From the UHGV virus genome UHGV-0074814: a DNA stretch of 52,958 bases; one strand, 5' to 3'. The notes under the pieces were generated by a model that had not been told where the DNA came from, ran no database searches, and was given only the letters and a program-made list of their open reading frames with translations. Below are positions 667-43,139 of the stretch, piece by piece; the first letter of the stretch is position 1, and each line of letters starts with the position of its first letter. Source of the DNA: a virus. The position numbers were made by a program, and so were the translations under genes.

Positions 667-831
667 TTACATATTCTTGATGATCGCGTCACCAAACTCT
701 GAACATTTCAGCAGTTTAGCGCCCTCCATCAGACGTTCGAAGTCATAGGTTACGGTCTTGGCGTTGATTGCGCCTTCCATACCTTTAACAATCAGGTCAG
801 CCGCTTCAGTCCAACCCATATGGCGCAGCAT
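667..831 (-). pseudogene. icd: icd 3'-terminal fragment (copy 1, att-associated; last ~54 codons only)
   Basis: Minus-strand translation [54 protein letters not shown]-stop matches isocitrate dehydrogenase C-terminus; no upstream icd body. Confidence 0.8.
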
Positions 832-1368
832 TAGATTTAGAAAATTATTATATCCAATTGAATTAAAACAATTTTATACTTAACGAACATCTAAACTTGT
901 TTTTTTACCTTCACCATAACTCGCTGATTTTGTATAGTTTACGTAGCGTTTTGATAACCACTTTATGGCAAAATGGAGGTTCGCTTGAAAACTTCTGTTC
1001 TTATCCAGAAATTAATGGAAATTGACAAAACTGTACTATTCGATGCGGACGTAGTGACCGGTGAGGAATGGTGGCCAACCCCGATTTCTCGTGTTTATCA
1101 CAATCCGCCACATACTTATGTAGAATTTTAAACAGGTGAACAATCTCAAAATGAATCTGACGAGCTAAGTGTTTATAGCGAATTACAAATTTGTGCACAT
1201 CGAATGATGCAAATTAGAGATTTTGTGCAATCTAACGAGGGACTGAAACCTGAAAAAATTGTTTCGGAAATAAACATTCAAATTGAACGTATTAAAAAGT
1301 GATGGCTGAAGCAATTCTGAAACACTAATTCATATTCTATGTTATTCATACCAATGTGGATTTAACTC

Positions 1369-1432
1369 CCACCAACCCACCAACCCACCAACCCACCAAC
1401 CCACCAACCCACCAACCCACCAACCCACCAAC
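1369..1432. repeat. perfect tandem simple sequence repeat, 8 copies of CCACCAAC
   Basis: Counted directly: 8 identical contiguous 8-bp units from 1369 to 1432. Confidence 0.95.
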
Positions 1433-1689
1433 CATGATTGGGCGGCGCAAGAAACTAATATCAATTAAAACAGCAAGTTATCAGTCTAAACAGAACACCA
1501 ACGGGATGGAGGAGAGACAAAAAATATCCAATGAAACCGTAGCGCGTCAGCATTCAAAAGCGGGGTTTCTTATTTTTACTTCACCAGTAACAAATACACT
1601 GTATCATAACTACATAAAAATGATTGTTCTGACTCAGATGAATTTCTTACTCTTGTGGAATGTCACTTAATGTTATTTATAGGTAAACA

Positions 1690-3579
1690 ATGAAATCCGA
1701 AACGCTAACCATCCAGCAAATTTTCCAAAATCAACGACAATATCGTGTTCCATTCTATCAACGTGCCTACGTATGGACGCAACGAAACCAATGGTCAGCT
1801 TTGTTGGAGGATATCTTCGAAAAAGCACAGAGCCGACTTTCGGGAACAAAACCAACCCCTCATTTCCTCGGCGCGGTGGTGCTGGAACCTCAACTCAAAA
1901 ACAGCTTGTTAGGTGTAGATACCATACATATTATTGACGGCCAGCAACGTTTAACCACTCTTCAATATATTCTGGCATCCATTCGATTATCATTGCGTGC
2001 TACAGGCCTTTCTGAACTGGAAGGGTTAGTATTGACTTGCTTGAAAAATACAAACGAAGCAACGATGAGAAATAAAAAGGTAGAATGCTTCAAACTGTGG
2101 CCAACTTTTCGAGATCAAACTCATTTTATTCAAAGTCTTAATGTTGATAATATTGACGATCTCCGTAATGTATTTTCTGATAGCTTCACGCAACATGGTA
2201 CGTTACGTAAACATTTCAACCACCCGCCGTCACTAGAGGCATTATGGTTTTTTACTGAAGCCTTTATAAAATGGATTAAAATAGAAAACCACTCACCACA
2301 AGAAAATGCTGTAGCACTAATTGAGGCTGTCTTGACGGATCTGAAACTGGTAAGCATATTTCTCGAAGCTGAAGATGATGCCCAAATAATTTTTGAAACA
2401 TTAAATGGGCGAGGAGCGGAACTTCATGCAACGGATCTTATTCGCAACTATATCTTTATGTGCGCTGAGCATGAAAATATTAATGCTATTGAATTATATG
2501 AAAATGAGTGGAAGATCTTTGAAGATAAATACTGGTCGGAAAAGCAACGCCGTGGACGTATTAATAAACCACGCATGGAGTGGCTTGTACATGCGACATT
2601 GCAATCAGAAAGGCAGCGTGAAATTGATCTGTCTCGCCTTTACAATGAGTATCGTGATTATGTAAGTAAGGACTTGCCTTCACAACGAGCAGATCTGCAA
2701 GTAAAGCGCCTCAAACAATATGCATCACAATATAAAGAATTGGTTGGTGGTTTTGGCACAACCCCCATCTCACACTTTGGACATCGCATCGCAGCCTATG
2801 ATGTGACGACACTCTATCCGCTTGCTTTGTTCATTTCGATAGCTAACATCGCCGATGATGAGAAAGCAGCCATGTATAATGATCTTGTCTCCTACGTAGT
2901 ACGAAGATCCGTATGTGGCCTGACGCCAAAGAATTACAACAATGTATTTATGAATGTATTGCGACACTTGTCTAAAACGGAAATTTCCAGTGTTGAGTTA
3001 CGTAATATCCTCAATAGCTTAAATGGCGAAGCCTCACGTTGGCCTGGGGACTCAGAATTTCTCAACGCTTGCATCAATGCTCCACTTTATCCTGGCAGGC
3101 TCGACGCACCGAAAATGCGCTCAATGTTAACGGAACTTGAAAGAGAACTTTGTCGCCAAGTGAAGACAGAAAAGCCTGATGTTCCAAATCTTTCTAATCT
3201 CGATATCGATCATCTTATGCCTCAAAGTTGGTATTCCTGTTGGCCTCTCGAAAATGGTCATATGGTGACAAATTCAGATGCTACGGTAATGAACCAAATT
3301 GTTCTGTCTGGAACCGATCTTACCCCTGAACAGCTACTGGTAAGGAAACGGCAACAAGCGATAGCTACGTTGGGAAATCTAACTTTGCTTAACCTTAGCG
3401 TAAACCGTTCCGTTCAGAATGCTGTATTTCTGAAAAAACGTGATGCTCTCATCGTCCACACCAATCTACGACTGAACATACCACTTATACTTAAGGATAA
3501 ATGGGATGAGAGTGAAATACAGGAGCGAGGTAAAAAGTTGGGGGAAATTGCATTGAAAGTATGGCCAAAATACGATTAA
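1690..3579 (+). CDS. DUF262/DUF1524 family protein, GmrSD-like type IV (modification-dependent) restriction endonuclease candidate
   Basis: N-terminal FYQRAYVW and IIDGQQRLTT (DUF262/ParB-like DGQQR motif); C-terminal DIDHLMPQS His-Me/HNH-like motif (DUF1524); SD AGGTAA 5 nt before ATG. Confidence 0.6.
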   Translation: MKSETLTIQQIFQNQRQYRVPFYQRAYVWTQRNQWSALLEDIFEKAQSRLSGTKPTPHFLGAVVLEPQLKNSLLGVDTIHIIDGQQRLTTLQYILASIRLSLRATGLSELEGLVLTCLKNTNEATMRNKKVECFKLWPTFRDQTHFIQSLNVDNIDDLRNVFSDSFTQHGTLRKHFNHPPSLEALWFFTEAFIKWIKIENHSPQENAVALIEAVLTDLKLVSIFLEAEDDAQIIFETLNGRGAELHATDLIRNYIFMCAEHENINAIELYENEWKIFEDKYWSEKQRRGRINKPRMEWLVHATLQSERQREIDLSRLYNEYRDYVSKDLPSQRADLQVKRLKQYASQYKELVGGFGTTPISHFGHRIAAYDVTTLYPLALFISIANIADDEKAAMYNDLVSYVVRRSVCGLTPKNYNNVFMNVLRHLSKTEISSVELRNILNSLNGEASRWPGDSEFLNACINAPLYPGRLDAPKMRSMLTELERELCRQVKTEKPDVPNLSNLDIDHLMPQSWYSCWPLENGHMVTNSDATVMNQIVLSGTDLTPEQLLVRKRQQAIATLGNLTLLNLSVNRSVQNAVFLKKRDALIVHTNLRLNIPLILKDKWDESEIQERGKKLGEIALKVWPKYD

Positions 3580-3625: not shown

Positions 3626-3804
3626 AACTCACTATTAAATCCTTTAATTTGCATCAAGAACAGCACTGTCAGCCCTAGGCTCTCGGACTTTGTACCGCTT
3701 ATCTTGTCTTCAAAAATCAGCTCGCATCCTGCACAGTTCAACGCATTACGTTGTAGATCGATTTTCTGGTCATTTGTTGATACGCAAACATAGCCAATAA
3801 GCAT
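3613..3804 (-). pseudogene. truncated serine invertase (Pin/Gin/Hin family), N-terminal ~45 residues conserved then divergent
   Basis: MLIGYVCVSTNDQKIDLQRNAL matches invertase catalytic N-terminus (Ser in VSTNDQ); ORF only 64 aa versus ~185-190 aa; SD GAGGGAG before ATG at 3804. Confidence 0.65.
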
Positions 3805-3830
3805 GGTAGCTCCCTCTGACAAAAGCAGGA

Positions 3831-4220
3831 ATGATGCCATTTTCTCGTTATTTCTGCATTTTCATAAACGTTGGTTTGGGAGAATTATCTCTGGCTGGCA
3901 CTGCATCGGGTGTCATTGGTCTGAATGGGTATGTAACGATTCCGTTAATTATTTCAGGTTCCCGGAGAACACTGATTATTCAGTGGGGGCAGGCGAGATT
4001 TGGTGGGTCTGGTGGTGAAGATGCCGGATATCTTAATGATTTTCCTTTTGCCTTTCCGTCAGCATGTTATGGAATGATAGTTAGTCATGTGGGGCATACA
4101 CCTTCAGGCGCAGGAATCCTGTCGGCTTCTGCAATTACATCAAATCAGTTCCGCGGTTTTTCAAGCATAGCGACTGCTGCAAATGCTGTATTAGGTCGTT
4201 ATATCGCTATAGGGGGTTAA
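3831..4220 (+). CDS. alternative tail-fibre C-terminal variable segment (silent orientation)
   Basis: Gly/Ser-rich fibre-like sequence inside the invertible segment, opposite strand to the expressed fibre gene; true reading frame entry is at the crossover site. Confidence 0.4.
   Translation: MMPFSRYFCIFINVGLGELSLAGTASGVIGLNGYVTIPLIISGSRRTLIIQWGQARFGGSGGEDAGYLNDFPFAFPSACYGMIVSHVGHTPSGAGILSASAITSNQFRGFSSIATAANAVLGRYIAIGG
3859..3884. repeat. invertase crossover site (gix/pix-like), left arm of invertible tail-fibre segment
   Basis: ttttcataaacgttggtttgggagaa; its reverse complement resembles site at 5389-5414 and the Mu gix core pattern AAACC-N-GTTT. Confidence 0.5.
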
Positions 4221-4221
4221 T

Positions 4222-4659
4222 ATGTTTTATAGTCCATCATTAAACATTTTTGTGAATCCTGCGCTTAAGGATGATTACATTAATGCAAATTCATGGCCAG
4301 ATGATGCTCTGGCTGTCAGTGATGATGTTTATAATGAATTTGCAATCAATACGCCCCCATATGACAAAATTCGTGTTGCAGGAAAAAATGGATTACCCAC
4401 ATGGGCACTAATACCTCCACCATCGCATGAAGAACTTATTCAACAGGCAGAATCAGAAAGGCAATTATTGCTTAATCAGGCCAACGAATACATGAACAGT
4501 AAACAATGGCCCGGTAAAGCCGCTATTGGTCGTCTGAAAGACGAGGAACTGGCACTATATAATTTGTGGCTGGATTACCTGGACGCACTGGAACTGGTGG
4601 ATACCTCCAGTGCTCCAGATATTGAATGGCCTACACCTCCGGTAACTCAGGCCAGCTAA
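4222..4659 (+). CDS. tail fibre assembly protein (alternative copy, silent orientation)
   Basis: C-terminus LVDTSSAPDIEWPTPPV matches conserved Tfa C-terminal motif VDTSTAPDIEWP. Confidence 0.6.
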   Translation: MFYSPSLNIFVNPALKDDYINANSWPDDALAVSDDVYNEFAINTPPYDKIRVAGKNGLPTWALIPPPSHEELIQQAESERQLLLNQANEYMNSKQWPGKAAIGRLKDEELALYNLWLDYLDALELVDTSSAPDIEWPTPPVTQAS

Positions 4660-5026
4660 TCTCAGGAGCCGTCGAAGTGTCGACGGCTTTTACTTCTTTT
4701 TTGTAGTCCATCCAGGCGGATAGTTTTTCTTTATCTGTACTGCTGATATCACCAAGCATTAATTCCACTCGCCAGTCAGCTGTGACATTATCGGCATGAG
4801 CAAGTAACTGCATTCGCTGATTTTCAGCACGTGCGACATAATCAATCGCCGGAGATTTCAGTACCGGTAAACCATTTTCATCTGACGTGATTAATTTACC
4901 CCCTTCCTGCTGTCCGGCAATTAATTCATTGTATAAGTCTGTACTTATCTCAACAATGTCAGCAGGCATGTCGCTGTTTATACCATCAAAGAAAAAACCA
5001 TTAGTCGATTTTGAGAAATAAATCAT
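4631..5026 (-). CDS. tail fibre assembly protein (expressed orientation)
   Basis: C-terminus AVDTSTAPEISWPELPEV matches Tfa motif; follows the tail fibre gene; start taken at the ATG (MIYFSK) at 5026 instead of the upstream non-ATG start of the ORF track. Confidence 0.6.
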   Translation of the reverse strand: MIYFSKSTNGFFFDGINSDMPADIVEISTDLYNELIAGQQEGGKLITSDENGLPVLKSPAIDYVARAENQRMQLLAHADNVTADWRVELMLGDISSTDKEKLSAWMDYKKEVKAVDTSTAPEISWPELPEV

Positions 5027-5034
5027 AGATATAC

Positions 5035-5691
5035 CTATACACCGATTGCTACCCAAAAACAGGACCTTTCATATTTGACAATTTCTCCCTGAGATATACC
5101 GCCAACAATTATATAGAACTGTGATTTGGTGATATCAGAACAGTTCGCAATGCCCATTGCAGATATACCCGCCACCGACGTTGTATGTGGTACAGCCAAC
5201 AGCGCAAGTGAACGACTTGGGAATGTTACCGGGTAAGTCACCGTATAGTTTGATGCTCCACTGACTATACCCCACTGAATAATCAGACCTGAAGGGAGTT
5301 TTTGAAAACCCGTTGATGAAAGTGAACTGGCAAACGCCGCCATATCCGGAATTTGGTTTTGCTCGTTACCCACATTTCGTTTTGCCGCTTCTCTCAAACC
5401 AAGGTTTTGAAGAGCCGTTTTCACCGTGCCGTCCGATTTGATATCGCCAAACGGATTTTTGCGACTTAACAGCAGCGCACGAAGCGCGGTAAGCAGCTGG
5501 TCATGCCGCCCCTTCTCCAGGCTGGCACCGGATGCCTCCACCACGCTGCAGAGCTCTTCCTGCAACATGTCAAAGTAGTCATCATCCAGATCGGTGGCAG
5601 GCGTGCCGGTCTGGGGGTTACCACGGGTAAAACCGTTCTTACCCGCGCCGAACTTATCCTTCTGCGCGGTTTTCGTGTCTATACGATGCAT
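5035..5691 (-). CDS. tail fibre protein (Mu S / e14 Stf-like) with constant N-terminus and invertible C-terminus
   Basis: Position after baseplate genes; crossover site at 5389-5414 lies inside the gene; followed by Tfa. Confidence 0.55.
5389..5414. repeat. invertase crossover site, right arm, inside tail fibre gene
   Basis: ttctctcaaaccaaggttttgaagag is an inverted near-copy of 3859-3884. Confidence 0.5.
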
Positions 5692-17034: not shown

Positions 17035-18240
17035 TTACGCCGCTGCAATCTTCAGCAGTTTGATGGCCTGCGAATCGACCAGCATCCCGCCGGTGCGCTT
17101 GGTGGTATAAAAACCGACAAACGGTTTATTGGTGTACGGGTCACGCAGAATGCGGGTGCCGATACGGTCAACGATGGTGTAACCCCGTTTGAAGTTACCA
17201 AATGCAATGGCTTTCGCATCAGCGGCGATATCCGGCATCTGTTCGTTTTCAGCGATACCGTAACCCGCCAGAGAGGACGGCTGCCCCAGTTCCAGCCCCG
17301 GACGCCACAGATAGTTACCCTCGGTGTCTTTCAGCAGACGGATGGCAAACAGGCTGTTGTTGTTCATCATGAACTTCGCGCCGGTGCGGTGTGCCTTACG
17401 CAGCGTGTAAATCAGTTTGATAATGGCGTCTGCGGTCACCGCAGTCGCGTCGCCGGATACAATATGCTGAAGTTTGCCGAACGCCCGGACCTTATCGGTT
17501 TCATCCGTGGATTCATACGCCAGGAACCCTTTCGGCTTCTTGGTACCATCGCCGGTGGTAAAGGCAATTTCTTCCTGTTCGGCAAATTCGGTTGCCAGCT
17601 CGCTGTTGATCCATGCTTCCACGTTGAAAAAGGCATCATCCAGCATTTTCTGGGTGGCCTGCGGGTTACCGTAGATTTCCCCCATGAAAGGTTCAATCAG
17701 GCCCAGTTTTGAGGTGGCAGTCTGGGAGCGCGCGTCAGTCTCGCCAACCCATCCGGAAGCCGTGCCGCCCAGATTCACCAGTTTTTTGTAGTCGGAACCA
17801 CCAACGGTGATCACCGTGGCTTCCTGGCGCATCACCACTTCATCTTTCAGCAGGGTCAGAATGTTGCGATCCAGCGCTTCCGGCACGGCATAGCCGCCGT
17901 CTTCATCGGTGCCCACCTGTAATGCCTTGCGCTCCAGATCGCGCAGACCATCTTCACGGCCTTTACGCAGGAAGCCCACAAACGCTTCTTTATGCTCGGT
18001 GGTCAGTTTATTTTGCGCACCACCTGCCGGACGTTTCAGCTCAAGCAGCTCTTTTTCAAGATCGCTTTTGAGGTTTTCCAGCTCGCTGAGTTTTCCGTTC
18101 AGGGTTTCCACCTGCCCGGCAAGCTTGCCTTTTTCCTGCTCAATCGCATCCACGCGCTTGTCGTTCTTTGCTTTGAAGTCGTCAAACTTCTGCTGCAGCT
18201 CCTGCGCGACCTGTTCGACATCTTTAATATCAACCGCCAT
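17035..18240 (-). CDS. major capsid protein, HK97 fold with N-terminal coiled-coil delta (scaffold) domain
   Basis: 401 aa; N-terminal ~100 aa charged coiled coil then capsid domain; preceded by prohead protease and portal. Confidence 0.8.
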   Translation of the reverse strand: MAVDIKDVEQVAQELQQKFDDFKAKNDKRVDAIEQEKGKLAGQVETLNGKLSELENLKSDLEKELLELKRPAGGAQNKLTTEHKEAFVGFLRKGREDGLRDLERKALQVGTDEDGGYAVPEALDRNILTLLKDEVVMRQEATVITVGGSDYKKLVNLGGTASGWVGETDARSQTATSKLGLIEPFMGEIYGNPQATQKMLDDAFFNVEAWINSELATEFAEQEEIAFTTGDGTKKPKGFLAYESTDETDKVRAFGKLQHIVSGDATAVTADAIIKLIYTLRKAHRTGAKFMMNNNSLFAIRLLKDTEGNYLWRPGLELGQPSSLAGYGIAENEQMPDIAADAKAIAFGNFKRGYTIVDRIGTRILRDPYTNKPFVGFYTTKRTGGMLVDSQAIKLLKIAAA

Positions 18241-18254
18241 CGTATTTCTCCTGA

Positions 18255-18941
18255 TTAGAAGTTCAGATTTTTCAGTGCATTCAGTGCAGAGCCCACATCC
18301 TCAGCGTCGCGCAGGGACAGTGCGCCATAGCCCCCGGCCATGAATGCTTTGGCCTGGGTACGGGAGAGTCCGACATCACGCAGGACTCTTTCGATTTTTT
18401 TCTGTTCGGGGATTTCCCCGCGGGCCAGTGCGTTCTTGACGTCGCTGATCCGCGCCTCGTCGTTAGACGGGAACGTCACCAGGCTGACTTCCCAGAGGTC
18501 GATTTCTTTCAGCAGAAAGGCTTCTTTGCTCCGGTCGTATTCCCAGTCTTTCAGGACGTACCCAATAGAAAGGCCGGTTAACGAACCGGCCTTCATGTGT
18601 GCATGTGCGCGTTTTGCGAGGGGATCATCATCAATAAGCAACCGTCCCCTGACGTAAAGCCCGACATCGTCTTCCTTCATTTCGGTGTAAACACCGATGG
18701 GTTCATCCATGCGGTGCTGCCAGAGCAGCGCAGGTAACGCTTTTCTGTCACTCCACGCCCGCAGGGAAGCAGCAAATGCCCCGGACATCACCACATCATC
18801 GTGGCTGTCCTTTACACCAAAGACGGAGCCATACCCTTCAAACTCACCGGAGTCACTGACAGATTTCAGACTCAGCGGTACATCAAGACGTTGTTTCGTC
18901 TGCATTGGCGTTATCCTTCTGCTTACCGGCTTTACTGCCAT
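18255..18941 (-). CDS. prohead protease (HK97 family)
   Basis: 228 aa between portal and capsid genes. Confidence 0.7.
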   Translation of the reverse strand: MAVKPVSRRITPMQTKQRLDVPLSLKSVSDSGEFEGYGSVFGVKDSHDDVVMSGAFAASLRAWSDRKALPALLWQHRMDEPIGVYTEMKEDDVGLYVRGRLLIDDDPLAKRAHAHMKAGSLTGLSIGYVLKDWEYDRSKEAFLLKEIDLWEVSLVTFPSNDEARISDVKNALARGEIPEQKKIERVLRDVGLSRTQAKAFMAGGYGALSLRDAEDVGSALNALKNLNF

Positions 18942-23836: not shown

Positions 23837-23867
23837 TTGCATGAGTTGCCCATCGATATGGGCAGCT

Positions 23868-24802: not shown

Positions 24803-24805
24803 AAA

Positions 24806-25132: not shown

Positions 25133-25283
25133 TTGTAGTTATCTCTCACCTCGCTGATACAGCAGGTGCAAATTGAGGAAACATCATGTACCGCAAATCA
25201 GAAGCGGAAACGTCAAAGAAGCCGAGTCAATGGATAACTGCGGGATAGGCTAGGACCAAGGAATCCCCAGACCCAGAAACGAC

Positions 25284-25306
25284 AAAACCCGCTCGATGGC
25301 GGGTTT
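25284..25306 (-). terminator. hairpin terminator upstream of holin (tR'-like candidate of the late operon)
   Basis: Stem aaacccgc/gcgggttt with 6-nt loop; on minus strand followed by TTTTGTCGTTT. Confidence 0.4.
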
Positions 25307-25350
25307 AAGCTGTGTGGCGAAGTGAGCACACTTAACAGATTACGATATTT

Positions 25351-25379
25351 TTTGCGTACGCGTTAGTGTTTTGATAGAA
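25351..25379 (+). promoter_or_regulatory. candidate sigma70 promoter for the cargo cassette
   Basis: TTGCGT (25351-25356), 17-bp spacer, TAGAAT (25374-25379), 44 bp upstream of the ATG at 25424. Confidence 0.3.
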
Positions 25380-25423
25380 TTTTCAGCCACATAAAAATTC
25401 ATTCTTATAATTCGGGATATATA

Positions 25424-26599
25424 ATGGATATAACTTGTTTAGAATGTGGCAATGTTCTTGACGACCCAACTGTAGCTTGCGATAAATGCGGTGCCACGCC
25501 TCATGTTGTAGTGCTGGGCAAACAATCGTACTTTCCTATTGGTGCTGTAACAGCAAATCTTGAAAAAAATGATTCAAGAGCATTTGATTATCGATTAGGT
25601 GAAGTTTGGGATCTAAAAAATGAAGTCACATCTGAATTCATAACCAGAATTGAGAAAAAATTTAGCCGAAAAAACAAATTTCATAACTTCCTAGACTCAG
25701 ATCACAACCCTTCATCCATTCCTACGATCCTAAAAAAATACATTAATAAAAATAATGAATTCATTGATTTATCTAGAGCTATAATAGAGAAGCTTAAACA
25801 TAATGCTAATAACGAATCGAGAGTTGCCCAACTTCAGGGGGGGAGCGTTGTTTTCATCCACTATAAGTCTACCGAACCAGAGGATTTGGGGAAACTTCTA
25901 ATCGTAATGGTTGATAAACAAAGCGCCTATGACTTTGATTCGGATAAGTTGACCCCAACAAGATTAAATCCAATTAATACCGATGCCTTACGGCAGGCTG
26001 CGATGTTCGATTTAACTTTATTCGAAGCCAGTTATCCAGAAAACAAGGGTGACTCATATGTACATTTCTTGCAAGGTAAATCTAAAAGCGATTTTTTCAA
26101 AGACTCATTAGGTTGCCGACATGATTCGGACAATAAAAGAAGCATTCAGCAATTATTCAGTGCTATAGATATTTTTGCTAGTAAAAACTCACTCGGTCGT
26201 GTACTGCGTGATACTATTGACAATGAAGTTAAATCCTTACTGGAAAAAAAATCAAAAGATAAACACGGAAATAAGTCCGTTAAGATAGAGGATATTTCAA
26301 AAATAATTGACTCATGCCTGACTGATTCACACAAATGTAAGGGAACGTTTGTCGATTTTGTTAATCTTAATGGTTTCCAGATTGACCCTCAATTTGAACC
26401 AACTCCTAAAGCAGCTGAAAGCGCGCTTACAATTGAAGTGGCAGATAACGACAATAATTTTAAGTTGAAAATAATGCGTGGAGCTATTGGAGACGAAAAG
26501 TCAAATAAGCCTGTAATTCTCACTGACAACAAATGCGAAATTGTGATAAAATTGAGTCAGGCAAATTATGATGAACTCAAAAGATATAGAGACAGCTAA
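25424..26599 (+). CDS. zinc-ribbon protein with NdpA/YejK-like (NA37 nucleoid-associated) domain; candidate defence component A
   Basis: N-terminal CLECG-N10-CDKCG zinc ribbon; central GGSVVFIHY...YVHFLQGKSKSDFFKDSLGC resembles YejK GGIVLFCHY...[23 protein letters not shown]; AT-rich relative to flanks. Confidence 0.5.
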   Translation: MDITCLECGNVLDDPTVACDKCGATPHVVVLGKQSYFPIGAVTANLEKNDSRAFDYRLGEVWDLKNEVTSEFITRIEKKFSRKNKFHNFLDSDHNPSSIPTILKKYINKNNEFIDLSRAIIEKLKHNANNESRVAQLQGGSVVFIHYKSTEPEDLGKLLIVMVDKQSAYDFDSDKLTPTRLNPINTDALRQAAMFDLTLFEASYPENKGDSYVHFLQGKSKSDFFKDSLGCRHDSDNKRSIQQLFSAIDIFASKNSLGRVLRDTIDNEVKSLLEKKSKDKHGNKSVKIEDISKIIDSCLTDSHKCKGTFVDFVNLNGFQIDPQFEPTPKAAESALTIEVADNDNNFKLKIMRGAIGDEKSNKPVILTDNKCEIVIKLSQANYDELKRYRDS

Positions 26600-26601
26600 T
26601 A

Positions 26602-27816
26602 ATGACAATTGCTGATGACTTATCAAGATTAGCGCAGATTATTAACGGAGCCTCAAGCAGAGTTGAGGGCTACTACACTGTCATAAGTCTTGAAGAAAGC
26701 ATTGTTATTGTAAATAGTTCTGAAATAATTAGACTGTTACAATCTATAGGTTATAAAAAGGCAACAACCTGCATCGAAAATAATGAAATTTGGCTAGATC
26801 GCCAAGCTTCATCTTGGGATGATGCTATAATTTATGAGAATGTTGAGTCTTTTTGGTCTAGAGTAAACACCCAAAACGCTCTTCCGAAAAATTATATCAT
26901 CGGAACGCCGTTAATACTCCCTACTTCTAAGAATGAAAGCATCGAAAAAATCCATATTTTCTTTATGTGGAAAGATATCCTTTCATTAATTTCTGATCAT
27001 CATAACAGTGACTGCTCTGTCTTATTTTTCACCAATGAAGACAAAAGTTATACAGTCGAACTCACGCATTTTTTACAATATAGCGAGATTAATCGCTTAT
27101 CGAACTCGTCTCTTAAATATGAAATTATAAAGGAGCTTCTCGACACAATAAAAATCAATGATTTACACAAAAGCGAGCGCAAGCTCGTTATACGCTCAGC
27201 CATAAACGAAGTATTTAAAGCAAATGGTACGTTCAATTTCTTTGACTTGCTTAACTCTACTGAACTCGTCAGGAAAAAATATGATGAACTATATGAGATT
27301 TACACAAAGAGGTTTTCTGTAAATAAAATTCTTAACGAACTCGATGAGAAAAATCTTGAGTTCACGAGTAAAATTAACGAATTCATATCATCTAATCAGA
27401 CAAAAGCATTGACTATTCCCGGTGCATTAATAGCAGCTGGTGGCTTAGTGAAGGCTAATGAAACAACCGAAGCAATATTGATTATCGCAGGACTTTGGAT
27501 GATAAAAAAAGTCAATTACATTTCTATTGAGATATTCAATGAAACATTCGACAACTTACGTTCTCGAGTGGAGTCCGCTTTCGATAAGTATTTAAAGTTT
27601 GAAGAAAATAAAGAAATCAAAGATAATGCAGATAGTATTAAGAGTAGCATTACAGGTTTGATTGATAAAGCTAAAAAAAGGATGAGAACTGTTAAATATC
27701 TCGCATCAGCCATGTTTTATGGAGGCCTTATTTACGTTGGATATAAACAGTTCCCAGTCTTTTTTGAAAAATCGGCAGTAAATCTATTTTATTTTTTATG
27801 CCATACTATAAGCTAA
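26602..27816 (+). CDS. membrane protein with two C-terminal TM helices; candidate defence component B (effector?)
   Basis: Starts 3 nt after the stop of the upstream gene; hydrophobic segments ALTIPGALIAAGGLV...AILIIAGLWMI and YLASAMFYGGLIYVGY. Confidence 0.5.
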   Translation: MTIADDLSRLAQIINGASSRVEGYYTVISLEESIVIVNSSEIIRLLQSIGYKKATTCIENNEIWLDRQASSWDDAIIYENVESFWSRVNTQNALPKNYIIGTPLILPTSKNESIEKIHIFFMWKDILSLISDHHNSDCSVLFFTNEDKSYTVELTHFLQYSEINRLSNSSLKYEIIKELLDTIKINDLHKSERKLVIRSAINEVFKANGTFNFFDLLNSTELVRKKYDELYEIYTKRFSVNKILNELDEKNLEFTSKINEFISSNQTKALTIPGALIAAGGLVKANETTEAILIIAGLWMIKKVNYISIEIFNETFDNLRSRVESAFDKYLKFEENKEIKDNADSIKSSITGLIDKAKKRMRTVKYLASAMFYGGLIYVGYKQFPVFFEKSAVNLFYFLCHTIS

Positions 27817-31346: not shown

Positions 31347-31840
31347 TAAGCCCCCACGAAATTCCCTGACAGATACCACTCTTCACCCGATGCAGCGCGC
31401 TTGCTGCTTTTCCGTAAGCACCGCTCACGACGTGCCAGAAAATTGTTTCGTTCTGGCTGGGAGTGGCTTTCACGGAATGCCGCCATCCACACGGTTGCAG
31501 CACGACGGTATAAGCCCCTTGACTCCAGTTCTTCAGCCTGGCGGGTCAGGCACAAAATCACCCGGGGATCGTTAGTGCCGACATAGAAATTGCGCACAGG
31601 TCTGGTTTCACGAACTGGTTGTGGTTCCGGCTCCTGCGCTCTCTCAGTCAGGCGTGGGAAATGTCTGCGTGTATCTCCTTCACAACGGTGAGCCACACGC
31701 CCACTCTGACGTAACTTGCTTGCTGACTGCAGAACGCGCTGCCGTGAGTAACCTGCAAAAGCATCCGCAATGTCTCCGGAAGTACAGCCCGGATGGGCTT
31801 CAATGAATTTCTGAACGTCATTCAAAAGACTCATGCTCAC
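31346..31840 (-). CDS. hypothetical replication-region protein
   Basis: 164 aa, translationally coupled between O-like gene and Dam gene. Confidence 0.4.
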   Translation of the reverse strand: MSMSLLNDVQKFIEAHPGCTSGDIADAFAGYSRQRVLQSASKLRQSGRVAHRCEGDTRRHFPRLTERAQEPEPQPVRETRPVRNFYVGTNDPRVILCLTRQAEELESRGLYRRAATVWMAAFRESHSQPERNNFLARRERCLRKSSKRAASGEEWYLSGNFVGA

Positions 31841-32778
31841 CCCCTGAATCCTGCCGGGATCTGGCTGTAGTCCACATTGTCGTAACTGGCTTTGAAGTAC
31901 GGGTCTTCGCGTTTTTCTGTGTACGTGCTGACGGACGGCGATAAGCGCAGGGAAAGCTCATCCCATTTTTCCCGCAGCTTCGACGGGCTGAGCACGTTAC
32001 GGCACCAGAACGGATCGCGGCTGACGCGGCTGTACATCTCGCAGATTTGTTTGTGAGTACGACCATCCTGCACACACATCAGGCGAATTTCGTTTGCCCA
32101 GGCTGTCCAGTTCGGTTCTTTGGGACGAACCACCTCGCCGTCACATTCGGCAGCCTGCTCGTACAGGGCGATGATTTTTTTCCAGAGCCACTGTGCGCAG
32201 GTCAAATCATCCTGCGTCCCCCACTGGCGCTTTTTAGGGCTGAATACAACCGCATCAGGATGGCGAGTTAAAAAATCCTGTTCAGCCGTCTGCGTGTCCG
32301 GTTGCGAAGCGTCCGGACGAGAAGTTTTTTTATCTGACGGATCATGTTTTGATTTTACTGACGGATCCCCGCCAGATTCTGACGGGTGAAAACCCGCTTT
32401 TTTGCCAGATTTCGACGCATCAAATTTTGACGGGTCAGATTTTGATGCGTCAGATTTTGACGGGTCAGAATCTGACAGTTGAGAAAATGCCGCTGCCTGA
32501 AGCTTCGCAACGTTAAGCTGATAAACATTCGACGCATTGCGGTTACCCTGGCGACGCGCCTTACGCGTTAACCAGCCTTCTGCTTCCAGCCGTGCGATAG
32601 CCGTTCTGACGGTACTCATCCCCGCGCCAATCTGACGGGCAATGGTTTTAATTGATGGCCAGCACACACCTTCGTCATTACTGAAATCAGCCAGGCGGGC
32701 CATAATTGCCACGCTGGATAACTTCATGCCTGATGCAGCGCAACCATCCCATACATAGCCGGTTAATTTAGTGCTCAT
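31837..32778 (-). CDS. replication initiation protein (O-like, N-terminal winged HTH) containing ori iterons
   Basis: N-terminal HTH SIKTIARQIGAGMSTVRTAIARLEAEGWL; internal peptide repeats encoded by 15-bp DNA iterons. Confidence 0.6.
   Translation of the reverse strand: MSTKLTGYVWDGCAASGMKLSSVAIMARLADFSNDEGVCWPSIKTIARQIGAGMSTVRTAIARLEAEGWLTRKARRQGNRNASNVYQLNVAKLQAAAFSQLSDSDPSKSDASKSDPSKFDASKSGKKAGFHPSESGGDPSVKSKHDPSDKKTSRPDASQPDTQTAEQDFLTRHPDAVVFSPKKRQWGTQDDLTCAQWLWKKIIALYEQAAECDGEVVRPKEPNWTAWANEIRLMCVQDGRTHKQICEMYSRVSRDPFWCRNVLSPSKLREKWDELSLRLSPSVSTYTEKREDPYFKASYDNVDYSQIPAGFRG
32351..32481. repeat. tandem iterons (~7 copies of 15-bp unit AGATTTTGACGGGTC and variants); putative origin of replication
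   Basis: Read directly: gattttactgacgg / agattctgacgggtg / agatttcgacgcatc / aaattttgacgggtc / agattttgatgcgtc / agattttgacgggtc / agaatctgacagttg. Confidence 0.6.
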
Positions 32779-37824: not shown

Positions 37825-38085
37825 ATGAGGTTATCAAAAATGCTTCAAATGCTGACACTTGAGGAATGGGCTGCGGAAAAATTTAGGAGTAATCCTCCAA
37901 GTGTGTCCACATTGCGTCGTTATGCTAAGCAGAATTTATTTTGTCCACCAGCAATGAAACAAGGTCGACTCTGGCGAGTACGTGAGGACGCAGAGTTAGT
38001 TGGGGAATTAGTTACTCCAGTAATCAAGAAAAGTGATTCTATTATTCTGCAAAGGATTTTAAGCAATGGCAGCCAGACCACGTAA
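37825..38085 (+). CDS. excisionase (lambda Xis-like); start may be one of two downstream ATGs
   Basis: MLTLEEW...STLRRYAKQNLFCPP resembles lambda Xis; overlaps integrase start. Confidence 0.6.
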   Translation: MRLSKMLQMLTLEEWAAEKFRSNPPSVSTLRRYAKQNLFCPPAMKQGRLWRVREDAELVGELVTPVIKKSDSIILQRILSNGSQTT

Positions 38086-39193
38086 AAATAATGTTTCAGT
38101 ACCTAACTTGTATCCGCTTTATAGTAGAAAAGTAAATAAAGTCTATTGGCGATATAAGCATCCAGTGACCGGGAAATTTCATTCGTTGGGCACAAATGAA
38201 GCTGAAGCTATTGCTATTGCCACTGAAGCTAACACTCGTCTGGCTGAGCAAAGAACCCGGCAGATTCTAGCTATCAGTGATAGGATCGCAACCAGCAAAG
38301 GAAAAGCGATCACAACGTCAACCTGGTTAGATCGCTATCAAGCGATCCAGGATGACAGGCTCAAAAGTGGTGATATAAGACTCAACACCTATAAGCAAAA
38401 AGCTAAACCAGTATCCTTGCTCAGAGAACGAGCAGGAATGAAGTTGATCTCATCCGTTGATGTTAGAGATATAGCACAATTGCTTGATGAGTATATTGCA
38501 GCTGGACAGCCTAGAATGGCCCAAGTCGTTAGGTCTGTATTGATCGATGTGTTTAAGGAAGCACAGCATTATGGCGAAGTTCCGCCAGGGTATAACCCTG
38601 CTCTTGCGACGAAGCAACCCAAAAGAAAAATTACCCGTCAACGCCTCAGCCTGGAAGAATGGCAAAAAATATTCGATATAGCAGACGCCAGTCATCGTTA
38701 CATGGGAAATGCCATGCTCCTAGCTTTGGTCACTGGGCAGCGTTTGGGAGATATATCCAAAATGAAATTTAGTGATATTTGGGAAGATCATCTTCACGTC
38801 ATTCAGGAAAAGACTGGAAGCAAAATCGCTATCCCTCTTTCTCTTCGCCTCAATGCGATTAACTGGAGTTTACGCGATGTAATAGCCCGCTGCCGTGACT
38901 ATGCAGTCAGCCCATACCTAGTGCATTTTTTCCGTTCAACTTCACAAGCAGAACGTGGGGCACAGGTTAAATCCAATACATTGACGATGAACTTTAGTAA
39001 AGCGAGAGATTTAGCAGGAATTGACTGGGGTGATGGCTCACCCGCAACATTCCATGAACAAAGATCGTTATCTGAACGCCTGTACAAGGAGCAAGGGATA
39101 GATACCAGAAAGCTACTTGGGCATAAAACACAACAACAAACCGATCGTTACCATGATGACCGAGGGAAAGGTTGGAGCAAAGTAGCTTTGTGA
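38066..39193 (+). CDS. tyrosine integrase (lambda Int family, e14 IntE-like)
   Basis: 375 aa; C-terminal catalytic region with R...HxxR...Y (HKTQQQTDRYHDD); adjacent to Xis and att-side icd repeat. Confidence 0.85.
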   Translation: MAARPRKNNVSVPNLYPLYSRKVNKVYWRYKHPVTGKFHSLGTNEAEAIAIATEANTRLAEQRTRQILAISDRIATSKGKAITTSTWLDRYQAIQDDRLKSGDIRLNTYKQKAKPVSLLRERAGMKLISSVDVRDIAQLLDEYIAAGQPRMAQVVRSVLIDVFKEAQHYGEVPPGYNPALATKQPKRKITRQRLSLEEWQKIFDIADASHRYMGNAMLLALVTGQRLGDISKMKFSDIWEDHLHVIQEKTGSKIAIPLSLRLNAINWSLRDVIARCRDYAVSPYLVHFFRSTSQAERGAQVKSNTLTMNFSKARDLAGIDWGDGSPATFHEQRSLSERLYKEQGIDTRKLLGHKTQQQTDRYHDDRGKGWSKVAL

Positions 39194-39403: not shown

Positions 39404-40519
39404 TTAAATTAAATCAAATAGCCCATGTTCATCTATAGCCTTTGAACTAATTAAGTTCGCGGCTTCTATGTCATTGTCACTTGCCTCAGAAATAAGGAAA
39501 AATGAATCAACATGATTTTGCAAAATAATTTCCTTATACTTCTTGAGCCATTGTAATTTACCTGTAGTGAACAATACTTTACGCGGTAGCAAAATACGGC
39601 TAAAAACTGATGGAAGATACTCACTTCTATTAAATGGAATAAAAGGGTCGCCTAAAGAAAGAATAGTTAGACGATTAAATTCACCGTGCGAATTCAATTT
39701 TTCAGCTGATTTGGCTATACCACTTGGTAAAAAAACACCTGTCTTGATACCGTTGCGTAAAGCAACAACAGCCATCATTTTATCAAAGGCAGTACCTCCA
39801 AATAATAAGGAATATCCTTTTTTAACAGAAAGATCAATAGTATCAAGAACAACTTGTTTTTCTATATCACTTGGTGACGTGCTCGAAATTATCGAAAGAT
39901 CAAAATCAGTAAATAACTGCCCAGTATAATAAAGATTTTTGCCGGTGAAAGTTGACAACTTTAAAGGAAACATTTTATCATCATGCTTAATTTCAGATAC
40001 ATTAAGATCTGTTAAGGATGGATAGTTAAAGTTTGGTGAGGCTTTTCCGTGTTTATTATTTTTTGATGCCTGCGGACTAAAAACTAGAATTTCATTTTTA
40101 TTATTACACAGGTAATCCTGTATCATTTTTTTTACAATATCCCAATCAAGACCACCGTGACCACAACCTAAAGCTGGCAGGGTGATTGTTTTTCCATGTT
40201 TATTATCCAAATATTTCGAGAGCCAATGCAGTCCTTTTTCGATATATTCGTACTTAGACTTATTTCTCCAATGATCCTTGGTGGGAAAGTTTATGATTTC
40301 TATTTCCTTACCATACGTATCATTACCTTTCCAAACAGCTGGTCTTCCTGGAGATATTTCTCCTTTTTTACACAGCAATACGTATTCATTATACATTTCA
40401 GGAAACTTATTCTTAAAAGCAAAAGCAACCCCTGCCCCCATTACACCAACACAATTAACTGTATTAATTCTAATGTCAGCAGCATAATCGAAAAAATCAC
40501 CATCAACATATCTAATCAT
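39404..40519 (-). CDS. macro-domain protein (DarG/TARG1-like) with C-terminal Rossmann-like domain; candidate antitoxin
   Basis: GDFFDYAADIRINTVNCVGVMGAGVAFAFKNKFPEMY and ALGCGHGGLDW macro motifs; start set at ATG with SD AAGGAGG (ORF track extends to 40645); AT-rich. Confidence 0.55.
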   Translation of the reverse strand: MIRYVDGDFFDYAADIRINTVNCVGVMGAGVAFAFKNKFPEMYNEYVLLCKKGEISPGRPAVWKGNDTYGKEIEIINFPTKDHWRNKSKYEYIEKGLHWLSKYLDNKHGKTITLPALGCGHGGLDWDIVKKMIQDYLCNNKNEILVFSPQASKNNKHGKASPNFNYPSLTDLNVSEIKHDDKMFPLKLSTFTGKNLYYTGQLFTDFDLSIISSTSPSDIEKQVVLDTIDLSVKKGYSLLFGGTAFDKMMAVVALRNGIKTGVFLPSGIAKSAEKLNSHGEFNRLTILSLGDPFIPFNRSEYLPSVFSRILLPRKVLFTTGKLQWLKKYKEIILQNHVDSFFLISEASDNDIEAANLISSKAIDEHGLFDLI

Positions 40520-40991
40520 AAAACCTCCTTTGGTCAGAGTATACATCCTTATTTCTGGCTCTTCAATTCTATTGTCAAAAACTTTTACAAAGTCTGCATC
40601 AGTAAAACTGATGGCGCATTTTAAAATTAAAATCAATATGTCCATATCAAACGTTATATTTGTTATTTTTTGTATTTATTATTCATATCCATCATGTGCT
40701 ATTAAATCGCCCAAAAGAACATAATAAATTATGTGCACCACTTTCTTCTTATTGAATTTTGGATTACATTACGATCTAAATTAGATCTTTTGCCAATATC
40801 ATAAACATATGCAGCAAACGTTGCAACAAGCTGTTCTCATTCTAACAGTTAGTAGAATATAAACTCTGTAATTAGCACACTGAATTCCCTTCATCTATGA
40901 GTTACAACATCCTTTAAGTGAATAGTATTGTTAGTTTAAATCTATTAATATCATTCATAAAACTATTTTATATAGTTAAAGTCATTATAAA

Positions 40992-41015
40992 TCCATCTGA
41001 ATATATACAGATGGA
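40992..41015. promoter_or_regulatory. perfect palindrome TCCATCTG-N8-CAGATGGA in intergenic spacer (candidate operator)
   Basis: 8-bp inverted arms with 8-bp AT spacer, read directly. Confidence 0.3.
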
Positions 41016-41226
41016 TTCTGCCAATAGTCTTTGCAGGTGAAGTGCATGTTATATATTTTTTAGGGAATATATTTTCTAATTATTTCTCAGATAAAAATTT
41101 GCAGAACGAAATTACTTTACATAATACCGAATGTTACAGATTATTTTATTGCATATAAGCATTGAACTAACCACTATCACAGTGACTATGTTAATCATAA
41201 AATCTGCATCAAATTCAAAAAGCTCC

Positions 41227-42573
41227 TCATAAACTGTTCCCCTGCAATCTTTGGAGAACTTCATCCCGGAGATCATCGATCCCGTCAGAAACCTGAGCTA
41301 ACCAAACTTGACTTAATGAGCCAATATCAGCCTTACTTAGGGCTACTAACATATTGATATCTTCAGAAGATGTAACTATATCGAACAACTGATTTTTATT
41401 CCTCCCTTTAGCTACTATTTCCCCCAATAAATCATCATACGTAACTAACATCATTATTTTTCTAACTAGATCGGTTTGTATGACTGGCAGATCTTCTGTC
41501 AAAATTCGTTGTAGCATCGCAAGTGACTTCCTAGGATGCTCTCCATCTGCCTCATGCATGTAATTATTATTCCAACGTGTTTTAGGCCCTTTGCCTATAT
41601 CATGCAAATAAGCGGCCAACTCCAAAACTTCCTGATGAATAGAGTCTAATTGATAAAACTCTGGTGAATTAACTACAAGACTAGCCACTCGTCGACTATG
41701 AGAGCCAACATCTTCATTATGAGGCCCGTAGCTCGTCCCCAATCCATCGATATCTTCAAGCTCTTGGATGGAGGAGAAATTACCACGAATTGCACTTAGA
41801 GCATCACTAATACTTTGAAATTTTGGCCTCGTTTCTCGTTGAAATGAAGTTACATATTCAATAGCTTCATCAAAAAGCATTTTTAACACTACCGGTCCCG
41901 TGACTAAGGATGAGGACCAGTTTCCAGGTTGATAATAATAATGTTGAAAATCACCCTCAACAATATTTGGTGGAACAATACCTTTGTTCTGGAAAATACT
42001 CCTCACAATATCAGACATAGAACGATTCCATGTAATTATCTGATTTATTTCGCTTAAAGAGACATGATCTGGCAGCAAAAGTTCTGCCATCTTTTTATGC
42101 CTCTGAGTCTCGTCAGCATAACCCCATGCATTATTATCTATGGTAGCCCAATCTAATACATCAAGCTGGTCAGCTTGAGTATTACCAGAATAAAAGTTCG
42201 GTGGATTAACTGTATTTGCGGAAGCATCTGTAAAATATGACCCATTCCTTGTTTCGAGTGATAATATAGAAACTGAAAGATAGATAATAAATTGCTGATC
42301 TACATTTTTTTTATGAAGAACAGACAATTGCATGGGCGTTTTTTTTGCAAAATAAAAAGGAACATAATCATGAACACAACGACCATTCGTATTAGGCACC
42401 TGCATCACTGCCCTACGCCCCTGTATTCCTTCATCAGCAACATTCACATGTGATATACGACGTGCAATTTTCTGATTAGTCGAAAACAGCCCAGTTTCAA
42501 TTATTGATTCAAGATTATCTACTGACGTAAAGTGATATGCATTTCGGTGTCTATGGTGAACAGGAACTGTCAT
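41227..42573 (-). CDS. DarT-like (DUF4433) ADP-ribosyltransferase domain fused to HD phosphohydrolase domain; candidate toxin
   Basis: N-terminal YHFTSVDNLESIIETGL, HDYVPFYF and YFTDASA resemble DarT; C-terminal HSRRVASLVV...LAAYLHDIGK is an HD motif; SD GGGGGA; AT-rich. Confidence 0.5.
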   Translation of the reverse strand: MTVPVHHRHRNAYHFTSVDNLESIIETGLFSTNQKIARRISHVNVADEGIQGRRAVMQVPNTNGRCVHDYVPFYFAKKTPMQLSVLHKKNVDQQFIIYLSVSILSLETRNGSYFTDASANTVNPPNFYSGNTQADQLDVLDWATIDNNAWGYADETQRHKKMAELLLPDHVSLSEINQIITWNRSMSDIVRSIFQNKGIVPPNIVEGDFQHYYYQPGNWSSSLVTGPVVLKMLFDEAIEYVTSFQRETRPKFQSISDALSAIRGNFSSIQELEDIDGLGTSYGPHNEDVGSHSRRVASLVVNSPEFYQLDSIHQEVLELAAYLHDIGKGPKTRWNNNYMHEADGEHPRKSLAMLQRILTEDLPVIQTDLVRKIMMLVTYDDLLGEIVAKGRNKNQLFDIVTSSEDINMLVALSKADIGSLSQVWLAQVSDGIDDLRDEVLQRLQGNSL

Positions 42574-42928
42574 GTATCCCCCATGAAAAACTATAAAAAT
42601 TTAGGTAGTGTGCTTTATATTATTACAGTAATTGTAAATTACCGATATAGGATATCAACCTTCCTGTGATCTAGGTCACTCAGGATGAGCAACTTCCTAT
42701 TGATTAGGATTCAAAATGTTTGAAATGTGCGCTTACAGAACCACAGGCCACTTTGAGCGAAGAACAGACCTAAATATAAACGAGGGTTAATCAGCAATAA
42801 TTATAATAAACTGAGGTATGCCTAATTGGAACTTGACAATATAACTACCATCTCTCCCTAAACAACTAGGAGTTTTGATAACTTATTTTGATAAAATTTT
42901 GATAACCGTTAGCAGACTAACAAAAAAC

Positions 42929-42951
42929 AACGGGAGCGTTACACTCCCGTT
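42929..42951 (-). terminator. rho-independent terminator hairpin downstream of icd 3' copy 2
   Basis: Stem aacgggag/ctcccgtt, 7-nt loop; on minus strand followed by GTTTTTTGTT. Confidence 0.45.
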
Positions 42952-42974
42952 AATAGATTTAACAAATCACGATA

Positions 42975-43139
42975 TTACATATTCTTGATGATCGCATCAC
43001 CAAATTCTGAACATTTCAGCAGTTTAGCACCTTCCATCAGACGTTCGAAGTCATAGGTTACGGTCTTCGCGTTGATTGCGCCTTCCATACCTTTAACAAT
43101 CAGGTCTGCGGCTTCAGTCCAACCCATATGGCGCAGCAG
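42975..43139 (-). pseudogene. icd: icd 3'-terminal fragment (copy 2, attL-side)
   Basis: Translation [54 protein letters not shown]-stop; ~9 mismatches vs copy 1 over 165 bp. Confidence 0.8.

Follow-up and report, generated by a model that had tools for sequence, protein, structure and literature searches.

Two orphan icd 3' ends in a viral genome sequence point to tandem e14-like and phage 21 prophages at the icd attachment site of Escherichia coli

A gene end found twice

The virus genome UHGV-0074814, a stretch of 52,958 nucleotides referred to here in its entirety as the window, holds the 3' end of icd twice, the two copies being direct repeats some 42 kb apart. What leaves two ends of one gene in a viral sequence, and where is the gene to which they belong? 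The attB in icd has been recognized as common to e14 and phage 21 since 1989-1997. The evidence set out below argues, at a probability that we put near 0.9, that two prophages sit in tandem at the icd attachment site of E. coli and that the window covers the distal part of this double lysogen, an e14-like prophage (prophage 1) lying beside a phage 21 prophage (prophage 2).

The two icd 3' ends

Both copies lie on the minus strand in the same orientation, at 667-831 (copy 1) and 42975-43139 (copy 2), where the initial annotation had placed them. Each comprises the last 55 codons and translates on that strand to the icd C-terminus. Comparison of the complete icd gene (blastn) and protein (tblastn) with the window matched two segments, covering residues 362-416 only, and neither search found an icd body in the window. 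The copies differ at 8 of 165 positions, a count first given as about 9. Seven of these differences are synonymous third-position changes, as expected if the enzyme end encoded by a phage copy has to function. The eighth (T at 831, G at 43139) lies immediately outside the shared core TGCTGCGCCA, which occupies 821-830 in copy 1 and 43129-43138 in copy 2, and is for that reason assigned to two distinct phage arms. The copies recur at a period of 42,308 bp. They had been described as 165 bp long, which is correct for their coding part; similarity continues for ~100 bp past the stop codon and through the terminator, although identity is lower there and a 12-bp indel intervenes, so the repeats are better described as about 260-280 bp.

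Copy 1 is identical to the icdC of A42. When copy 1 and its left flank were joined to an icd body, the resulting synthetic empty site agreed at 99.9% identity with strain SCU-115, in which the site is unoccupied; copy 1 with this flank is the resident chromosomal icd end. The site is unoccupied in 2,906 of 5,426 complete E. coli genomes. At the left end of the window stands ycgX (DUF1398; 1-405, plus strand), which belongs to the chromosome beyond the icd attachment site and is annotated under this name in matching genomes. Copy 1 is a displaced resident 3' end, an icdC-type pseudogene forming the attR of prophage 1. Copy 2, by comparison, is identical, together with ~110 bp downstream that include its terminator, to the end of the intact icd of S87, a strain with the same prophage alone, and its region closely resembles K-12 at the e14-derived icd end and P' arm. 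These matches show that the enclosed 42.3-kb prophage carries copy 2 together with its terminator and the next ~100 bp. Alignment of the copies to icd and to K-12 icdC, a check suggested at the outset, bears this out, as both align and each is accompanied by the matching type of terminator.

The terminators deserve comment as the initial annotation had proposed that each copy has its own, with different stems that preserve pairing. Both hairpins are real, as judged by terminator scan and folding. That of copy 1 (621-643, minus strand) is a resident chromosomal-type icd intrinsic terminator with a GGGCGT/ACGCCC stem, reading AACGGGCGT-ATAAC-ACGCCCGTT and then GTTTTTAT from 643 to 621 on the minus strand (folding z = -3.1); the same type follows K-12 icdC and the LF82 remnant. 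That of copy 2 (42928-42952, minus strand), predicted by folding, is a phage-borne terminator of the e14 family with a GGGAG/CTCCC stem, reading TAACGGGAGTG-TAA-CGCTCCCGTTG and then TTTTTTG from 42952 to 42928 (z = -3.4); this type follows K-12 icd, where it is e14-derived, and S87 icd. Compensatory evolution of the two stems in place was considered and rejected. They are not a covarying pair but the chromosomal and the e14-borne types, as at K-12 icdC versus K-12 icd.

The enclosed e14/SfV-type prophage

The repeats bracket a prophage of 42 kb, as had been claimed. With one repeat counted it runs from 832 to 43138, and its interior suggests a full-length, complete-looking 42.3-kb phage of the e14/SfV type with int and xis. 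The displaced resident copy of the flanking direct repeats is at the end distal to int. At the left, the P arm of e14 type (832-960, minus strand) was recognized by alignment with the K-12 e14 attR and has a putative arm motif TTATCAAAA at 949-957. At the right, the P' arm (42873-42905, minus strand) has three putative arm-type repeats of TTATCAAAA and is almost the same as the P' arm that e14 has downstream of K-12 icd. The motif occurs five times against 0.73 expected, and all but one of the five lie no more than ~130 bp from either prophage 1 junction.

The integrase gene (38066-39193, plus strand) encodes an e14-type tyrosine integrase with the Pfam domains Arm-DNA-bind_1, the lambda-type arm-binding domain, and Phage_integrase. 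It is identical to K-12 IntE at 360 of 375 residues (96%, full length). The excisionase gene (37825-38085, plus strand; Pfam Exc, annotated xisE in matching genomes) is adjacent upstream, and both reading frames are intact. The body of the prophage (3600-37800) comprises tail fibres, baseplate, sheath and tube, head, terminase, lysis, Q, replication and immunity genes, read from the ORF list and the RefSeq annotation of the near-identical A42 prophage. It is that of a myovirus of the e14/SfV/SfI/SfII type with lambdoid early genes, being 97.4% identical to vB_EcoM-689R6, SfII and SfI over ~70% of window positions 3600-28000.

Two cargo regions flank the body. Beyond the P arm a full-length type IV restriction enzyme of the GmrSD type (1690-3579, plus strand; Pfam GmrSD_N and GmrSD_C, PADLOC mREase_IV) sits in the position of e14's mcrA in the K-12 layout. 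Between int and the att site (39404-42573, minus strand) lies DarTG, consisting of DarG (39404-40645) and a DarT-HD fusion (41227-42573), with PADLOC hits at 6.6e-58 for DarG and 1.4e-42 for DarT and the Pfam domains Macro, DarT and HD. DarTG adjoins intact icd in seven genomes and occupies the position of lit/ymfDE in e14. A search of the whole window with Rfam, at the gathering threshold, and with a tRNA scan gave no match.

The likeness to e14 of K-12 is extensive. It takes in the IntE-family integrase, the attB core in icd, a gene order of att, cargo, int, xis and so on to tail fibres, invertase, restriction gene and att, the phage-borne icd 3' end with its GGGAG/CTCCC terminator and triple TTATCAAAA P' arm, and the displaced icdC-type pseudogene with its chromosomal terminator. 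The two differ in that e14 is a 15.2-kb deletion remnant whereas prophage 1 is 42.3 kb and complete-looking, with DarTG instead of ymfD/ymfE/lit and a GmrSD enzyme instead of McrA. The pin invertase, judging from the A42 annotation, is only a fragment in prophage 1, and the region of the e14 sRNA C0293 is not conserved downstream of copy 2. The phage-borne copy of prophage 1 is, besides, joined to a phage 21 arm and not to icd.

A hybrid junction at copy 2

To the right of copy 1 lies prophage 1's own P arm, and to the right of copy 2 the P arm of phage 21, so neither copy is joined to an icd body, as the initial annotation had noted. Across copy 2, the phage 21 P arm is followed by the common core and then by a P' arm of e14 type. 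LF82 and MS1657 share the junction CAGCA|GTATATAAAAATTATG with the window, and the junction ...TATATAC|TGCTGCGCC is identical to that of the phage 21 attP and of LF82. LF82 has a phage 21-type prophage only and MS1657 has both kinds; both strains also possess an intact icd, which in MS1657 follows the phage 21-type int. Natural single and double lysogens together show that the phage 21 crossover falls within the 15 bp TGCTGCGCCATATGG.

It could be supposed that icd has been truncated or lost in this strain, copy 2 being the stump of a deleted gene, and the window does lack an icd body. This can hardly be right. The phage 21 P arm joins copy 2 exactly at the core, which is the product of site-specific recombination rather than deletion, the same junction coexists with intact icd in LF82 and MS1657, and every one of the 5,426 complete genomes has a match to the icd portion of the query. 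Nor is there much to recommend the idea that the copies are not att sites at all but a segmental duplication or an assembly artefact, for instance two strains collapsed together or joined as a chimera. Short-read assemblers can be misled by repeats of 165-280 bp that are 95% identical, but the flanks of copy 1 match the independent, complete references A42 and SCU-115 base for base, copy 2 agrees just as exactly with S87 in one flank and with phage 21 or LF82 in the other, the breakpoints fall exactly at the known core, and the three-copy architecture is present in two finished chromosomes. A duplication or artefact of this kind is extremely improbable.

The right-hand element

The tandem occupation by two different phages that had been proposed is upheld by the sequence to the right. 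Window positions 42921-52958 are colinear with phage 21 (record positions 17514-27551) over 10,038 bp at 98.8% identity. Prophage 2 begins at 43139. Its P arm (43140-43330, minus strand) is 99.3% identical to phage 21 (OL657228.1) and has a putative 21-type arm motif TTCCCCAAAA at 43258-43267; the phage 21 record itself annotates at attP an ICDH-like 165-bp pseudogene, a terminator and the arm-site consensus YYTTCCCCAAAA. There follow a b-region ORF (43599-44369, minus strand), a homologue of CPT_21_31 without a match in Pfam or PADLOC, and sitABCD (45056-48505, plus strand), an iron/manganese transporter carried as a moron and so annotated by RefSeq in MS1657 and LF82. The same genes are in the b region of the phage 21 genome itself. 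The late genes (48597-52958, minus strand) comprise two small ORFs, the side tail fibre gene (49178-51244) and the 3' part of J from 51297, which is cut by the window end; the window thus displays the distal quarter (~9.8 kb) of the prophage. Phage 21 (OL657228.1, Jouyvirus) and the PAI-icd/NC-SV prophages of ExPEC and AIEC share with prophage 2 the P arm, the b-region ORF, sitABCD, the side tail fibre and J. They differ from it in that the attR of prophage 2 abuts another phage's icd-end copy and not the chromosomal one.

A 'PAI-icd' carrying Iss and Sit has been catalogued in many ExPEC and AIEC strains (PMC7545054), and the right-hand element could be a decayed sit island of this kind, a fossil beside one live prophage. 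PAI-icd spans 12 to 61 kb among strains, with only 12 kb in ED1a (PMC7545054), the phage 21-type int of MS1657 is interrupted by IS2, and no more than 9.8 kb of the element falls within the window. The visible 10 kb, however, follows phage 21 without rearrangement at 98.8% identity, and the sit, tail-fibre and J reading frames are intact. Such decay is possible but somewhat unlikely. A sit-island remnant would, moreover, also go back to a second phage that had integrated at this att site, and the history of the locus would be the same. Prophage 2 may nevertheless be defective, by analogy with the closest double lysogen, MS1657, in which int is split by IS2.

How the array would have arisen

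Under the tandem-lysogen reading, each phage attP would carry, just 3' of the core TGCTGCGCCA, a terminator and a version of the last 54-55 icd codons with synonymous changes of its own. On integration the phage copy would become the working end of icd, and the earlier copy would be displaced to the far end of the prophage. As icd is transcribed from right to left, its body would lie beyond the right end of the window. The array, taken in the direction of icd, would start outside the window with the icd body and a phage 21 copy of the 3' end, followed by the phage 21 prophage with sitABCD. It would continue with the phage 21 P arm, core, copy 2 with its terminator and three-repeat P' arm, and the 42.3-kb prophage 1, and end with the e14-type P arm, core, copy 1 with its terminator, and ycgX. 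Two copies and one hybrid junction are within the window; the third copy is expected from MS1657 and the orientation of icd. MS1657 also possesses the phage 21-type parts expected beyond position 52958, namely int/xis, with int split by IS2, a triple YYTTCCCCAAAA P' arm and a phage copy of the icd end fused to the icd body. The earlier proposal that places intact icd to the right, beyond prophage 2, agrees with related genomes such as this double lysogen and is required by the minus-strand orientation of icd. Since the product is the same whichever phage integrated first, the order is not readable from the sequence.

The integration of e14 in icd duplicates about 163-165 bp, and its excision restores icd (PMC6379469, PMC13626634). 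The initial annotation had regarded the repeats as substrates for recombination, and this agrees with their identity as the attR and hybrid attL of prophage 1 and with the documented excision of e14 between icd and icdC (PMC13626634, PMC6379469). Copy 2 would serve as attL and copy 1 as attR for the e14-type Int/Xis pair, if this pair is as active as its intact sequence suggests. Excision of prophage 1 would leave an arrangement of the LF82 type with the icd body untouched. The copies would also be 95%-identical substrates for RecA-dependent deletion. The core-proximal half-site in the attL of prophage 1 is that of phage 21 in place of icd sequence, which could lower the efficiency of the e14-type Int. 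A laboratory tandem lysogen of e14 and 21, K-12(21), was reportedly described by Wang et al. in the Journal of Bacteriology in 1997, and in it e14 is said still to excise itself when adjacent to 21.

Double occupancy in complete genomes

A synthetic query joining int/xis to the phage 21 arm found the pair of e14-type and phage 21 prophages in two of 5,426 complete E. coli genomes, MS1657 and VTB96929v. Independent occurrence of the 495 e14-type int carriers and the 734 phage 21-arm carriers would lead one to expect roughly 67. In these two finished chromosomes, as is proposed for the window, phages with different Int specificities have entered one attB serially, giving three copies of the icd end. 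MS1657 differs from the window in having an Sll1717-type P-loop ATPase where the e14-type prophage of the window has DarTG. The exact combination of the window was absent from the complete E. coli genomes, in which no record covers at least 80% of 42000-46000.

The pair might owe its rarity to the hybrid inner junction, should this render the array unstable or the two prophages mutually interfering, and the window would then be a transient intermediate; we consider this improbable. Two ways in which such an array might behave have been proposed under this view, namely that either Int/Xis resolves it or that the two prophages co-mobilise. If it were true, the array would be useful for studying the competition of phages with different Int specificities for one attB, and for studying swaps of the DarTG/GmrSD defence cargo at att-proximal hotspots.

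What the repeated ends mean

The reading of the locus as a tandem array is correct but ordinary, repeated gene ends being the expected footprints at the long-known icd site. It adds a third natural example of the tandem array of e14-type and phage 21 prophages, with the prophage boundaries fixed to the base. It also identifies the two att-proximal cargo slots of an e14-type phage as the places of DarTG and GmrSD, and a phage 21 prophage as the carrier of sitABCD. Its value is chiefly for annotation: the two orphan 'isocitrate dehydrogenase' fragments are footprints of att sites and not decayed genes.

The two icd 3' ends

A 165-bp sequence is present in the window as two direct copies, at 667-831 (copy 1) and 42975-43139 (copy 2), both coding on the minus strand for the final 55 residues of isocitrate dehydrogenase when translated. 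The initial annotation had placed the differences between these same-orientation icd ends at about 9 of 165 positions; the direct repeats are real, but alignment gives a count of 8. Seven are synonymous, and the eighth (T at 831, G at 43139), immediately outside the shared core, is part of the flanking arms. Similarity extends for ~100 bp past the stop codon, at lower identity and with a 12-bp indel. Each copy is followed, as had been proposed, by its own terminator hairpin, found by terminator scan and folding (z about -3) and differing in stem: GGGCGT/ACGCCC behind copy 1 (643 to 621, minus strand) and GGGAG/CTCCC behind copy 2 (42952 to 42928, minus strand). The complete icd gene and protein of strain A42, which carries a near-identical e14-type prophage, align with both copies and nothing else in the window, over residues 362-416 only, so that the icd body is absent and neither copy is joined to one. 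Given the minus-strand orientation of icd, the body of the gene must be on the right-hand side.

Origin of the two copies

The window derives from the E. coli chromosome, its left end being ycgX. Window 301-830 joined to the adjoining 500 bp of an icd body makes an artificial empty site that strain SCU-115 matches at 99.9% identity, and the icd site is likewise unoccupied in 2,906 of 5,426 complete genomes. The match to SCU-115 identifies copy 1, along with its terminator and the DNA to its left, as the icd terminus native to the chromosome, now separated from the gene. The DNA beyond this terminator (window 560-620) looks like an e14 P' arm in degenerate form (GACTTTTGATACGTTATTTT...ATAACGGTTAAC versus GAGTTTTGATAACTTATTTTGATAAAATTTTGATAACCGTTAGC, with a 12-bp gap); K-12 is different at the matching position and carries iraM there. 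An older e14-type phage may have left behind even the 'native' icd end of this lineage.

From its stop codon through the terminator to a triple repeat, copy 2 is a close match to the e14-derived DNA that follows icd in K-12. The decisive comparison for its origin is with strain S87, which has the same prophage as the enclosed one (prophage 1), with the same DarTG cargo and without a second element. In that strain, intact icd terminates in exactly the sequence of copy 2 and the region downstream of it, which indicates that copy 2 is the icd-end copy carried by the prophage 1 phage in its attP. Five matches to the 9-mer TTATCAAAA lie in the window, where 0.73 would be expected. Four of them are at the prophage 1 junctions: the P arm has a single match (949-957) and the P' arm has three (42873-42905), the arms being phage sequence either side of the crossover core. 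The fifth (37831-37839, plus strand) falls at the very start of xis (37825), and could be a chance match or a putative Int-binding site regulating xis.

The two prophages

Prophage 1 (832-42974) is a complete-looking phage genome with tail fibre, baseplate, sheath, tube, HK97-type head and terminase genes, lysis genes, Q, and replication and immunity genes, together with xis (37825-38085) and int (38066-39193). Its integrase is 96% identical to K-12 IntE over the full length and has the lambda-type arm-binding domain. The late region is ~97% identical to vB_EcoM-689R6, SfII, SfI and SfV, and e14 is a known relative of this phage group (PMC3636060).

Both att-proximal ends hold defence cargo. 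DarG (a macro-domain protein) and a DarT-HD fusion adjoin int (39404-42573), and a GmrSD type IV restriction enzyme lies at the opposite end (1690-3579); in K-12 e14 these slots are occupied by lit/ymfDE and mcrA. A42 and strain MS1657 have a Sll1717-type P-loop ATPase at the DarTG position. About 260 bp upstream of the GmrSD-type gene, the octamer CCCACCAA forms a perfect tandem array of 8.2 copies (1368-1433), with 4 units at the same place in A42 and, as match lengths suggest, 6 in MS1657 and 3 in EC28. As a unit of 8 bp is not divisible by three, the array could work as a phase-variable switch of the slipped-strand kind, acting on either the defence gene or a small ORF upstream (1356-1670).

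A moron pair, two plus-strand genes (25424-27816), separates the Q antiterminator from the lysis cassette. One is a homologue of the 37-kDa nucleoid-associated protein (Pfam NA37); the other (404 aa) had no match in Pfam and PADLOC searches. A homologue of iss (increased serum survival lipoprotein) lies between the HNH/terminase and lysis genes (23495-23836, plus strand); its A42 counterpart is annotated iss, and MS1657 has a copy also on its phage 21-type prophage. Four 15-bp units, CAGATTTTGACGGGT, at 32406-32469 within a replication-initiator-like ORF (31837-32778), are probably the origin iterons. Beside oppositely oriented tail-fibre/tail-fibre-assembly cassettes (3831-5691), a pin-type invertase (~3660-3805) appears reduced to a fragment, since the A42 annotation reads 'recombinase family protein, missing C-terminus'; the host-range switch may be frozen.

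To the right of copy 2 the sequence is non-icd, as had been noted. Window 42921-52958 is colinear with the complete phage 21 genome (OL657228.1; 98.8% identity over 10,038 bp), and prophage 2 starts at 43139 with a P arm, followed by a b-region ORF, sitABCD, two small ORFs, a side tail fibre and J. The attP annotated in the phage 21 record comprises a 165-bp 'ICDH-like' pseudogene, a terminator and three arm subsites (consensus YYTTCCCCAAAA). A motif of this type lies in the window's phage 21 P arm at 43258-43267, ~120 bp from the core, which is also how far the e14-type site stands from the core in the other P arm. An identical junction, ...TATATAC|TGCTGCGCC..., is shared by the window, LF82 and MS1657. 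LF82 has only a phage 21-type element, abutting the chromosomal icd copy, whereas MS1657 has both prophages, its array running on through a lambdoid genome to xis, an IS2-split int, intact icd and rluE. A 'PAI-icd' bearing sit and iss has been catalogued in many ExPEC and AIEC strains (PMC7545054).

Frequency of the array

Tandem occupation of the icd att site by two different phages is supported, and the earlier observation and interpretation were both essentially right. The arrangement is the textbook att-site architecture of two known phages and is already known. Among the complete genomes, only MS1657 and VTB96929v had a single place covering a synthetic query that joined an e14-type yfdQ-int block to a block of copy 2, the phage 21 arm and sitAB; coverage in the next-best records was 57%. 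The e14-type xis-int is present in 495 genomes; for the phage 21 arm the number is 734. Under independence ~67 doubles are predicted, a figure confounded by K-12-derived strains and phylogroup structure; a reading of the rarity as incompatibility was not accepted on the same grounds. A DarTG-bearing e14-type phage adjoining phage 21 was not found in the complete-genome collection (n=5,426).

Recombination at the shared site

Both phages recombine at a core, TGCTGCGCCA (icd strand), that they have in common with icd; e14 shares one base more (ATG...). After two integrations, the inner junction is a hybrid of phage 21 P arm, core, e14-type copy and e14 P' arm, and the product does not depend on which phage integrated first. 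The sixth codon of copy 2 is GGT, as in S87, against GGC in phage 21 and in the MS1657 icd end, which would place the phage 21 exchange within TGCTGCGCCATATGG if the incoming phage had the reference allele. The middle icd copy of MS1657 (L002:3900-4230 in the comparison loci) and the A42 icd end (L001:43230-43550) belong, past the stop codon, to one e14-type subtype. They differ at four sites in the core-proximal ~70 bp, and at two of these the MS1657 copy agrees with the phage 21-type icd end of MS1657 itself, a mosaic suggesting that the three copies have undergone gene conversion or exchange at variable points.

For the e14-type Int/Xis pair, copy 2 is the predicted attL and copy 1 the predicted attR. 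If prophage 1 were excised, the arrangement would become that of LF82; if prophage 2 were lost, that of S87. Both arrangements occur naturally, and their junction sequences are the same. The repeats, 95% identical, may also allow RecA-dependent deletion. In an adjacent e14 and 21 pair, which would be a laboratory tandem array, e14 reportedly excises itself better than it does the 21 prophage (Wang 1997 abstract). In published accounts e14 integrates in icd with duplication of ~163-165 bp and excises by recombination of icd with icdC, the displaced icd end in K-12 (PMC6379469; PMC13626634, citing Hill 1989 and Brody & Hill 1988). Both phages bring a synonymous replacement of the icd 3' end together with a terminator, so that the enzyme stays functional in lysogens; the synonymous nature of all seven internal differences is consistent with this.
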